A stretch of 64,000 nt of DNA, taken from assembly GCA_965248695.1 (NCBI GenBank), contig CBDFKD010000002.1:2048001-2112000 (forward strand), in the 5' to 3' direction. Shown here one piece after another: positions 2,394 to 5,015 of the stretch; position 1 is the first letter of the stretch; the number at the start of each line of letters is the position of its first letter. The stretch comes from Acidobacteriota bacterium. Lineage in GTDB: Bacteria > Acidobacteriota > UBA890 > WLXD01. The notes beneath the pieces are model-generated. The model made no database searches. It worked only from the letters and a program-made list of their open reading frames with translations, and was not told where the DNA came from. Both the position numbers and the translations under genes were made by a program.

Positions 2394-3218
2394 CTAGGAC
2401 TCTGAATCCCCGAAGCGGGCGTCGCGCCAGGCGATCGCCGCCTTCAGGCCGTCCTTGCGGGCGATGGCCATGAACTCCTCGCGTTCCGGAACCACCGCGG
2501 CCTCGATGAGCACGCCCATGTCGTGAGAGTCGCCGAGCGCCTCGCGCATACCCATGATGTCGTAGGTGCGATTGATCGCCTTCTTGGTAGTGGTCATCGA
2601 GAACGGGTCGATGACGGCGATCTTGCGCGCCATCTCCATCGCTGCATCGAGGTGCTCGCCTTCGCCCACCACCTTGTTGATCAGTCCCATCTGTAGACAC
2701 CGATCGGCCGACACTCGATCGTCACCGGTGAAGTACAGCTCCTTCGCCTGCTTGGGGCCGGTGAGCCAGGGGAGCAGCATCACCACCACCCCGGCGCCGA
2801 AGCGCAGATCGGGCTCGCCGAGCCTGAAGGTCTCGTCGGCAACGGTGAGATCGCAGGCGAGAGCAAGCTCGCAGCCGCCGGCGATGGCGTAGCCGTGCAC
2901 CGCCGAGATCGTCGGTTTTGGAAAGTTCCACAGCCGCATGATCGAGTCGAAGTCGCGCTGCAGCACCGGCGCGAGATCGACGACGTTGACGCTCCCTTCG
3001 TGCTCGGCCTCGTCCTTGAGGTCAAAGCCGGAGCAGAACGAGCGCCCGGCGCCGTGTAGGACGACGACGCGAACGTCGGCGTCCTTTTCGATCTGGTCGA
3101 GCACCGCGTCGAGGTCGTCGAGCAGCTGCTCGTTCATGGCGTTGAGCACCTGCGGCCGATTCAGCGTGATGACGCCAATCGGGCCGCGGCGCTCGTACTC
3201 GATGGTCTCGAAGGCCAT
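2394..3218 (-). CDS. Enoyl-CoA hydratase/isomerase (crotonase) family protein
   Basis: ITLNRPQVLNAM, FCSGFDL, AIAGGCELALACD; start taken at ATG 3218 (MAFETIEY). Confidence 0.9.
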   Translation of the reverse strand: MAFETIEYERRGPIGVITLNRPQVLNAMNEQLLDDLDAVLDQIEKDADVRVVVLHGAGRSFCSGFDLKDEAEHEGSVNVVDLAPVLQRDFDSIMRLWNFPKPTISAVHGYAIAGGCELALACDLTVADETFRLGEPDLRFGAGVVVMLLPWLTGPKQAKELYFTGDDRVSADRCLQMGLINKVVGEGEHLDAAMEMARKIAVIDPFSMTTTKKAINRTYDIMGMREALGDSHDMGVLIEAAVVPEREEFMAIARKDGLKAAIAWRDARFGDSES

Positions 3219-3293
3219 TGGGCTAGTCCTGTTCACGTGCGGCAAGCAGACGCGCGAAGCGCCTCGACCGCGATGGATGATCGGGTGCGCGCG

Positions 3294-3522
3294 CTATCCG
3301 TGACGGATCCAGGCCGACCTGTCGGGCCTAGCCATGTCGGATCCATGCCGACCTGTTCGGCCTAACCATGTCGGATCCACGCCGACTCATTCGGCCTAAC
3401 CATGTCGGATCCACGCCGACTCATTCGGCCTAACCATGTCGGATCCACGCCGACTCATTCGGCCTAACCATGTCGGATCCACGCCGACTCATTCGGCCTA
3501 ACCATGTCGGATCCACGCCGAC
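3294..3522 (-). repeat. Tandem array, period 34 bp: 7 copies of a 25-bp core (GTCGGCGTGGATCCGACATGGTTAG, the aldehyde dehydrogenase 3' end) with 9-bp linkers
   Basis: GGATCC recurs at 3305, 3339, 3373, 3407, 3441, 3475 and 3509. Five cores are identical, including the one in the gene (3498-3522); the two distal cores are diverged. Confidence 0.97.
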
Positions 3523-5015
3523 TTCGTGTCGGTGTAGTTCAGCAGGCTCTCGAAGCACTTGTCTTTGGCGTTGCCCGACTGCTTCATGCCGCCGAAGGGC
3601 TGCGTCATGTCGCCCTCGTCGAAACAGTTGACCCAGATCACCCCGGCCTCAATGTCGCGGATGAGCCGATGTGCGGTGTTCAGATCGCGCGTCCAGACGC
3701 CGGCCGCGAGCCCATAGACGGTGTCGTTAGCCACTGCCACCGCCTCATCGACGCCGTCGACCGGGATCACCCCGGTCACCGGTCCGAAGATCTCCTCGCG
3801 AGCGATCTTCATGTTGTTGTCGACGCCGGTGAACAGCGTCGGGTTGACGAACGCGCCGGCGGCGAGATCGCCGTCCGGGGCGTCGCCACCGAACTCGACC
3901 TTGGCACCCTCGCTCTTGCCGGCCTCGATGTAGCTCAGCACACGCTCCTGAGCCTCCGCCGTAACAAGGGGGCCCATGTTGGTCTCGGGGTCGAGCGGAT
4001 CACCCGGCTTGTAGGCGTCGCGTCCGCTGGCGACGAACTGCTCGACGAACTCATCGTGGATCGATCGGTCGACGAGCAGGCGGGAGCCTGCGTTACATAC
4101 CTCGCCCATGTTCGCGAAAATGCCGTGGAACGCCGCCGACACGGCCTGTCCCATGTCGGGCAGATCGCCCATGAAGATCTGCGGCGTCTTGCCGCCACAC
4201 TCCAGGGAGACGCGCTTCATGTTGGACTGTCCAGCGTACGTGAGGATCAGCTTGCCGACCTCGGTCGACCCGGTGAAGGTGATTTTGGCGACGTCATCGT
4301 GCAAGGCCAGGGCCTTGCCGGCCACCTCACCCATGCCATTGACGACGTTGAACACCCCGGGTGGTCCGCCGGCTTCGAGGAACAGCTCGGCAAGTCGGAC
4401 GCAGCTGAGCGGTGACTGTTCGGCCGGCTTGAGCACCACCGAGTTGCCCGCCGCCAGCGCCGGCGCCACTTTCCAGGTGGCCATCAGCAGCGGGTAGTTC
4501 CACGGCGAGATGGCGCCCACGACTCCGAGCGGCTGTCGCAGCGTGTAGTGCAGGACGTCGAATTCGGTGGCCGTCACGGTGCTCTCGATCTTGTCGATGC
4601 ACTCGCCGAAGTACTGGAACGTCTCGACGCACGCCGGCAGGTCCACGCCAATCACGTCGGAGATCGGCTTGCCCATGTCAAGCGTTTCGAGCACCGCGAG
4701 CTCCTCGGCGTGCTGGTCGATCAGCGCTGCGAGGTTGTAGAGCACCTGCATGCGCTCACGCGGTGCCATCTGTGACCAAGAGCCCGCACGAAAGGCGCGC
4801 AACGCAGAACTCACGGCAGCATCGACGTCCGCTTCCGTCCCGGCGGCGACTTCGGCGAACACTTCTCCGGTGGTCGGGTTGACGTTCTCGAACCGACCGC
4901 CGCGGATGGCATCAACGTGCTCGCCGTCGATGAACAGGCGCACCTCGGGCTTGACCGCATCGGCCACGGCGCGCCACCGGGCGCTGTCGTAGGTTTCGAC
5001 TGTGCTGAGGGCCAT
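3498..5015 (-). CDS. NAD(P)-dependent aldehyde dehydrogenase, PuuC/gamma-glutamyl-aminobutyraldehyde dehydrogenase-like
   Basis: SPWNYP, KPAEQSP, FTGSTEVGK, LECGGK, catalytic Cys in GEVCNA, EEIFGPV; AAGGAG RBS before ATG 5015. Confidence 0.9.
   Translation of the reverse strand: MALSTVETYDSARWRAVADAVKPEVRLFIDGEHVDAIRGGRFENVNPTTGEVFAEVAAGTEADVDAAVSSALRAFRAGSWSQMAPRERMQVLYNLAALIDQHAEELAVLETLDMGKPISDVIGVDLPACVETFQYFGECIDKIESTVTATEFDVLHYTLRQPLGVVGAISPWNYPLLMATWKVAPALAAGNSVVLKPAEQSPLSCVRLAELFLEAGGPPGVFNVVNGMGEVAGKALALHDDVAKITFTGSTEVGKLILTYAGQSNMKRVSLECGGKTPQIFMGDLPDMGQAVSAAFHGIFANMGEVCNAGSRLLVDRSIHDEFVEQFVASGRDAYKPGDPLDPETNMGPLVTAEAQERVLSYIEAGKSEGAKVEFGGDAPDGDLAAGAFVNPTLFTGVDNNMKIAREEIFGPVTGVIPVDGVDEAVAVANDTVYGLAAGVWTRDLNTAHRLIRDIEAGVIWVNCFDEGDMTQPFGGMKQSGNAKDKCFESLLNYTDTKSAWIRHG

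Follow-up and report, generated by a model that had tools for sequence, protein, structure and literature searches.

A lineage-specific tandem array of aldehyde dehydrogenase gene ends in an uncultured Acidobacteriota bacterium, probably a stop-spanning minisatellite

In this study, we analyzed a 64,000-nucleotide stretch of DNA (the window) from the genome of an Acidobacteriota bacterium (G000), in which the last codons and the stop codon of an aldehyde dehydrogenase (ALDH) gene occur seven times in tandem ahead of a crotonase gene. The bacterium is an uncultured, soil-type organism, and the array is lineage-specific, real and largely an ordinary tandem repeat. On balance, we favor the explanation that it is a stop-spanning, lineage-specific minisatellite (VNTR) that leaves the protein unchanged, and that the synonymous differences between its copies result from selection on the working copy. 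The evidence comes from the layout of the array, the read depth, the gene ends of relatives, the distribution of substitutions and two sister arrays in the same genome. Several alternatives were weighed against this explanation, the most serious being a stack of gene ends built by recombination between lineages.

Results

Gene Context and Layout of the Array

The ALDH gene (3498–5015, minus strand) encodes a protein of 505 amino acids according to its translation, with a Pfam Aldedh match over residues 40–499 (E = 1.4e-165) and the C-terminal end ...YTDTKSAWIRHG*. Downstream on the same strand lies a gene for an enoyl-CoA hydratase (crotonase; 2394–3218, minus strand; ECH_1, E = 2.9e-45), and this neighborhood is conserved in relatives. 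The ALDH gene ends in TCG GCG TGG ATC CGA CAT GGT TAG (SAWIRHG*). The whole array (3294–3521, minus strand) is composed of seven cores of 24 nt, each holding seven codons plus TAG, and six linkers of 10 nt, giving a period of 34. A preliminary description made from the letters of the window had the core repeated seven times at a 34-bp period, and this reading was correct, with all cores in register, five of them exact and two diverged; its coordinates for the two distal copies included one extra base each, as the 24-nt cores lie at 3328–3351 and 3294–3317. Tandem Repeats Finder recognized a single array at 3304–3523 (period 34, 6.5 copies, 94% matches), and its score of 368 was the highest among the 40 Tandem Repeats Finder rows for the 64-kb window.

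Three types of core can be told apart. Cores 1–5 share the sequence TCGGCGTGGATCCGACATGGTTAG and are located at 3498–3521, 3464–3487, 3430–3453, 3396–3419 and 3362–3385. Core 1 (minus strand) is the working gene end and defines type A (GCG, CGA, CAT, GGT, TAG), and cores 2–5 with their linkers (3362–3487, minus strand), identical in core sequence to core 1, form a block whose five exact matches and read depth point to recent expansion. Core 6 (3328–3351, minus strand) is of type B (GCA, CGA, CAT, GGC), a putative intermediate relic. Core 7 (3294–3317, minus strand) is of type C (GCC, CGT, CAC, GGA) and represents the ancestral gene end, with 24/24 identity to the native end in two relatives of the same genus (G002 and G004) and in a further contig (L034). 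In order from the gene, the linkers are GCCGAATGAG four times, then GCCGAACAGG and GCCCGACAGG. Between the last TAG and the crotonase ATG lies a spacer of 75 nt (3219–3293, minus strand).

The core is confined to this locus. In the 5.89-Mb genome, the exact core had five matches, all inside the array; with up to four mismatches there were eight, namely the seven cores and one unrelated coding stretch, and with up to five mismatches just two places outside the array were matched, both unrelated. A donor for the core, that is, a paralogue gene end, was not found inside the genome. As for the 10-nt linker, the oldest copy has the 6-mer CCGACA in common with the coding sequence just upstream (237 of 5000 shuffles scored as well) and the equally long GCCCGA in common with the G002 spacer; either may be its source.

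Array and Copy Number in Short Reads

The genome is of the metagenome-assembled type, and errors are frequent in repeats, which is the ground for suspecting an assembly or polishing artefact. We compared the array with Logan contigs of runs X1 and X3, which come from one sample that is probably the source of the assembly and hence do not represent an independent sample. One X1/X3 contig is identical to 2900–3385 (0 differences), a segment that holds cores 7, 6 and 5 together with the two odd linkers, and a second matches 3494–3900, so that both flanks are also represented. A 62-nt contig in which the repeat is collapsed had a depth of 35.7 against 9.4–9.9 in X1 and of 8 against 2.0–2.1 in X3, a ratio of 3.6–4.0x; the 31-mer multiplicity expected in this contig is 4.0 for five identical copies, 3.0 for four and 5.0 for six. 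The short-read depth fits about five identical copies, as assembled. With zero differences in the same-sample contigs and a depth ratio that agrees with five copies, we consider an artefact highly improbable.

Gene Ends of Relatives and Ancestral State

With a 1101-nt query spanning the locus, matches were obtained in 38 of 61 relatives, including all four genomes of the same genus (G001–G004). In G002, G003 and G004, the match pieces of ALDH and crotonase overlap by 23–29 nt, and these genomes therefore have a single gene end. The native ALDH end is TCGGCCTGGATCCGTCACGGATAG in G002, G004 and L034, and ...CGG CAC GGT TAA in G003 (two more loci, L032 and L033, read like G002 and G004 over the compared stretch and are probably the same records). 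In G001, it is ...CGG CAC GGC TGA. The copy number is thus seven in G000 versus one each in G001–G004 and L034. The array was found in one of five genomes of the genus, and as a single genome carries it, the copy-number comparison is one between genomes and not within a species. Conservation of the array in relatives, considered in the preliminary description, was not borne out, and the idea that the distal variant (GCC/CGT/CAC/GGA) might be the native 3' end of orthologues proved right for G002, G004 and L034.

The GCC and CAC states occur in 5/5 orthologues. Since core 7 equals the native end of three relatives and these two states are present in all five orthologues, the distal copy is the ancestral gene end. 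By the same reasoning, it was the lineage of the gene-proximal copies that accumulated the changes, and the internal ATG (CAC to CAT) was gained; the earlier statement that the terminal copy had lost its internal ATG has to be reversed, CAC being present in all orthologues seen.

Type A and B ends were looked for more widely. With a degenerate core pattern, neither an array nor a type A or B end came up in genome_contigs (four stretches matched, three of type C and one unrelated) or in metagenome_contigs (one unrelated stretch). A shorter pattern searched against 401 phylum genomes matched 12, with seven matches in G000, one each in G001–G004, and one each in seven further genomes, where the match ends in TGG instead of a stop codon. 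A type A or B end or an array was present in 0/5 relatives, the nearest available genome being G003 with 26–28.5% third-position divergence. Contigs of runs X5 and X7 that skip the array were considered as a closer relative of about 95% identity without the array, which would have meant a very young array and hypermutation; this candidate was dropped, as they carry 11/11 and 16/16 of the listed G003 variants. They are G003-like and add nothing beyond G003.

Two further observations were made at this locus. In G001 (L031:1–70, G001:C126), the ALDH stop overlaps the crotonase start as TGATG (GGCTGATGGCA), and the spacer is about 75–80 nt long in G000 and G002–G004; from this arrangement, ALDH and crotonase look translationally coupled in G001. 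The ALDH copy of G004 (L003, G004:C15:1808504-1812009) is open only 720 nt back from its stop codon, with many in-frame stops upstream, reflecting a frameshift, a pseudogene or an assembly error.

Synonymous Differences Between Cores

The preliminary description had placed all six core substitutions at synonymous third positions, and our recount gave the same result: 6/6 substitution events are third-position and synonymous (p = 0.0014, uniform null), a small count that was picked out by a scan of many windows. Of the first and second positions, 0/16 were variable, compared with 9/18 of the third-position and linker sites taken together (Fisher p = 0.0011). At 4/8 third positions, the working copy does not match the orthologue ends (p = 0.17–0.22 against the gene-wide rate), and gene-wide, the ALDH third-position divergence from G000 is 26–28.5% for G003 and about 31–31.5% for G002; judged by these alignments, the amount of change in the working copy is ordinary. 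G/C mutation bias was rejected as the cause of the pattern, since 2/4 variable sites are A/T in the ancestral core.

The tail itself is conserved. SAWIRHG* is kept in 5/5 complete orthologue rows, and a K-[NST]-V-W-[VL] tail is present in 11/23 more distant ALDH rows, in a comparison of 31 given loci, 29 of them with a match (row L020 is from an unpublished genome, G047, and the claim holds without it). Such conservation indicates that the ALDH tail is functionally constrained. The differences between core 7 and the working copy are distributed asymmetrically: all four net changes fall in the eight third positions of the working copy, leaving all 24 positions of core 7 untouched (p = 0.004, or 0.0002 when six events are counted). 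A frozen core 7 beside a changed working copy does not fit freely mutating relics.

The Spacer Next to Core 7

Core 7 and the next 27 nt (window 3267–3317, minus strand) are identical to G002 and L034 in 49/51 aligned columns, with one substitution and one indel. Given a third-position difference of about 31% between these genomes, the near-identity of the 27 nt to G002 and L034 has p = 0.0005; in G003 and G004, this stretch is variable. Either the 51-nt patch is ancestral and escaped change by chance, or recombination with a G002-like lineage refreshed or imported it. In its middle part (window 3235–3266, minus strand), the spacer shows good conservation across G002, G003, G004 and L034, a TTGACG included; in G000 alone it has about ten changes there, which may reflect the loss of a regulatory element in the array-bearing genome.

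Predicted Mini-ORF Chain

Six overlapping mini-ORFs of 13 codons (42 nt) are predicted at 3294–3505 on the minus strand, each with an ATG inside one of cores 1–6 and the TAG of the next core as its stop, overlapping by 8 nt. They translate as MVRPNESAWIRHG four times, then MVRPNRSAWIRHG and MARPDRSAWIRHG, identical to the peptides given before, and the first overlaps the ALDH stop by 8 nt (ATGGTTAG). The linker changes had been described as partly synonymous and partly not; in base changes, the linker part of the mini-ORFs has two synonymous versus three non-synonymous (D to N, R to E and A to V). Therefore, there is no sign of peptide selection outside the ALDH-derived half. RNA folding, Rfam, and promoter and terminator scans turned up nothing within the array.

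Sister Arrays in the Same Genome

The preliminary description had proposed a scan for other genes followed by tandem copies of their own last codons, and such genes do exist in G000. With thresholds of a period of at least 20, at least four copies and at least 85% match, five arrays were found, two coding and three non-coding, and each of the three non-coding arrays starts within the final codons of a gene and takes in its stop: those of ALDH, ffh/SRP54 and an ELFV-type dehydrogenase. The ffh (SRP54/SRP_SPB) array (L037:635-820, G000:C2:4957834-4958019; 28-bp x 6.6) has a unit holding the last four codons and TGA. Its four proximal units are identical and have the ancestral coding part, and its distal relics are decayed, including two second-position changes; the array is absent from G001–G004. 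The gene just downstream begins VLMIRLRRAGAKK, and we take it to be rpsP-like.

The ELFV dehydrogenase array (L038:622-900, G000:C2:1438121-1438399; 36-bp x 7.7) likewise lies on the gene end. The G003 counterpart (locus L049) comprises about three units; because two of these are joined in frame, the protein terminates in RARQRIAAGRARQRIAAG*, with RARQRIAAG duplicated, and no such array was found in G001. The working end of this gene has been remodeled by the array within the genus. Neither the ffh nor the ELFV units contain an ATG chain. The third-position excess is not significant in these two arrays alone (about 5/10 events, by hand count), and a general rule of derived proximal and ancestral distal units was rejected, as it holds for ALDH and one ELFV site and the proximal ffh units are the most ancestral-like.

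Other repeats were noted in the course of the scan. A 35-bp x 2.6 repeat (L039:623-713, G000:C2:5599122-5599212) starts in the last 11 codons of a gene and includes its TGA, and smaller stop-spanning repeats are located at C2:1202260, 3459771 and 3456686 of G000. Two minus-strand ORFs flank a 64-bp x 3.3 array (L040:618-829, G000:C2:4488517-4488728), and a perfect 26-bp x 3.0 array is located at G000:C2:2832729-2832807. Long repeats with 15/45-bp periods (GCCGACCTCCGG...) occur at G000:C1:13217-13531, C1:22699-22879, C2:5227019-5228919 and 2776693-2776886, on both the 128-kb second contig and the chromosome, and probably code for pentapeptide-type repeat proteins.

Discussion

Considering the above results, we propose a plausible model for the origin of the ALDH array as a stop-spanning minisatellite. 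The unit would consist of the last seven codons of ALDH, the stop codon and a 10-nt linker. Because each unit carries a stop codon, the ALDH protein would stay the same at any copy number, and because the protein stays unchanged, duplication would be tolerated. A duplication that begins within a gene would be harmless only with a stop codon in the unit, which is likely why the large non-coding arrays of G000 sit on gene ends. The distal copy would be the original gene end and the units closer to the gene later versions, and the five identical units would have multiplied recently, through replication slippage or unequal recombination. The differences would have arisen in the copy joined to the gene, where the C-terminal strand (K-S-A-W-I) is under purifying selection, and this is why the copies would differ only synonymously; older versions would be left behind as little-decayed and presumably untranslated relics. 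The proposed order is C, then B, then A, with every event in the working copy and the relics as snapshots, type B being intermediate at the same sites. The mini-ORF chain would be a by-product of one synonymous change (CAC to CAT before GG, creating ATG) and of a period of 3n+1 (34 = 33+1). Among the models put forward in the preliminary description, recent slippage on top of older duplications fits best, given five identical proximal units beside two older ones and an array in one of five genomes of the genus.

An alternative that we regard as possible, though clearly less probable, is that the array is a bacterial stack of former or foreign ALDH ends, spare gene ends built by recombination between diverged lineages, with core 7 and its 27 nt imported or refreshed and the whole possibly read as a mini-ORF relay. 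The three core types would be, or would have been refreshed from, working ALDH ends of different lineages, joined by unequal or patchy homologous recombination, and each type would show only orthologue-typical synonymous differences because it was taken from a working end. The 51-nt patch argues for such exchange, as it is nearly identical to G002 and L034 amid flanks whose divergence is about 12% overall (31% at third positions), and in a stretch where G003 and G004 vary; so do the asymmetry between working copy and relic and the differences between core types (4/8 and 2/8 third positions), which are of the size seen between species of the genus. However, types A and B were nowhere found as a native end, whether in the five orthologues, the two contig collections or the 401 phylum genomes, the exact 34-bp register and the related linkers favor duplication in place, the 51 nt that directly precede core 1 show no unusual divergence (three differences from G002), and the state common to G000 and G002/L034 may simply be ancestral. 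A related earlier model, a record of successive 3'-end replacements, stands in so far as the distal copy is a displaced former gene end, and lacks support in so far as it invoked the integration of foreign DNA. Serial site-specific integration with att-site accretion at the gene 3' end is in our view highly implausible: only 10 nt separate the copies, with no cargo, synteny with relatives is unbroken, and no recombinase domain was found in the five neighboring proteins scanned.

The cores might instead have a function of their own, in translation or as nucleic acid elements. In a relay resembling that proposed for the MIRU repeats discussed below, ribosomes stopping at the ALDH TAG would restart at the ATG 5 nt upstream and hop through the six mini-ORFs, keeping the added 204 nt of operon mRNA translated or making peptides that copy the ALDH C-terminal strand, and selection on the peptides would keep the cores synonymous. 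The perfect register of six ORFs with 8-nt stop/start overlaps speaks for it, as do the derived gain of the ATG in G000, the retention of SAWIRHG in all cores including the relics, the TGATG overlap of G001 as a precedent for coupling at the same junction, the divergence in G000 alone of the spacer middle, including a TTGACG conserved in four relatives, and the MIRU ORFs coupled to the neighboring gene that a review describes (PMC12548453). Yet the crotonase ATG lies 75 nt beyond the end of the chain and has an AGGA of its own, only GGA precedes each mini-ORF ATG as a ribosome-binding signal, linker codons change non-synonymously, the two sister arrays have no such chain, and the array is present in one genome only; with an ordinary RNA fold in addition, the translated relay or peptide mimic of the preliminary description has gained no support so far, and we judge it improbable. 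Still less probable is a cis-acting DNA or RNA element, in which GTCGG-N7-CCGAC sites with a GGATCC center would serve as protein-binding sites or as mRNA-stabilizing hairpins between the operon genes. It is true that the change CGT to CGA completes the 5-bp inverted repeat in cores 1–6 and that a second potential hairpin, GCCGA-N5-TCGGC, spans linker and core. Nevertheless, the fold energy is no better than that of shuffles (z = -1.12; 25/200 shuffles fold at least as well), no Rfam family or terminator-like site was found in the array and no further copy in the genome, and five-base stems are common at 65% G+C.

Returning to the minisatellite explanation, the ALDH array is a minisatellite (VNTR) with the defining features that were tested. 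As in other bacterial intergenic minisatellites (MLVA loci), head-to-tail units follow each other at a constant period (34, seven cores in register), identical recent copies adjoin degenerate edge copies, copy number varies between relatives (seven versus one), and the units come with neither cargo nor a dedicated enzyme, their number having probably grown through slippage or unequal recombination. Unlike these, the ALDH unit begins within a coding sequence and takes in its final codons and the stop, and its relics depart from the working end at synonymous sites only. In the passages returned by a literature search, a stop-spanning array class with synonymous relics was not described as such.

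The preliminary description knew of no named system that matches, and one analogue does bear a name: the MIRU-VNTRs of mycobacteria, reportedly described by Supply et al. in 1997. MIRUs occur in tandem between the genes of an operon and contain a small ORF that overlaps a neighbor's stop or start; translational coupling and differential expression were proposed as their roles, and they are regarded as mobile and as coupled to the start of the gene downstream (PMC12548453, PMC2734929); the family is dispersed, with 41 loci in H37Rv and units of 40–100 bp (PMC2734929). The ALDH array is similar in having tandem units between operon genes and a small ORF overlapping the upstream stop. In contrast, its core is unique to one locus, its unit is 34 bp rather than 40–100 bp (PMC2734929) and derives from the local gene end, and although its first mini-ORF overlaps the upstream stop by 8 nt, the end of the last one is still 75 nt away from the crotonase ATG. 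Therefore, being not dispersed, 34 bp in unit length, of local gene-end origin and without overlap of the downstream start, the ALDH array is not a member of the MIRU family. It also differs from att-site accretion in its 10-nt linkers and the lack of foreign DNA or of a recombinase in five neighboring proteins, from CRISPR arrays in that its "spacers" are 10 nt long (against about 25 nt or more, and unique) and 4/6 identical, and from diversity-generating retroelements in that its variable sites (C/A/G, T/A, C/T and A/C/T) are not adenine-specific.

A repeat seeded in the last codons of a gene can resemble a designed or translated system and yet be mostly a tolerated duplication, which calls for caution in genome scans. 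If the asymmetry between working copy and relic is real, such arrays would be small dated records of gene-end evolution or of exchange between lineages, and if the cores were stacked by recombination, the stack would record gene-end swapping. The sister ELFV locus, with two units fused in frame in G003, shows that arrays can remodel a protein C-terminus. The three stop-anchored arrays would offer ready VNTR markers for an uncultured Acidobacteriota lineage. If the less probable recombination stack were true, the ALDH array together with those of ffh and the ELFV dehydrogenase would define a group of stop-anchored minisatellites in Acidobacteriota in which the relics evolve as coding sequence does.
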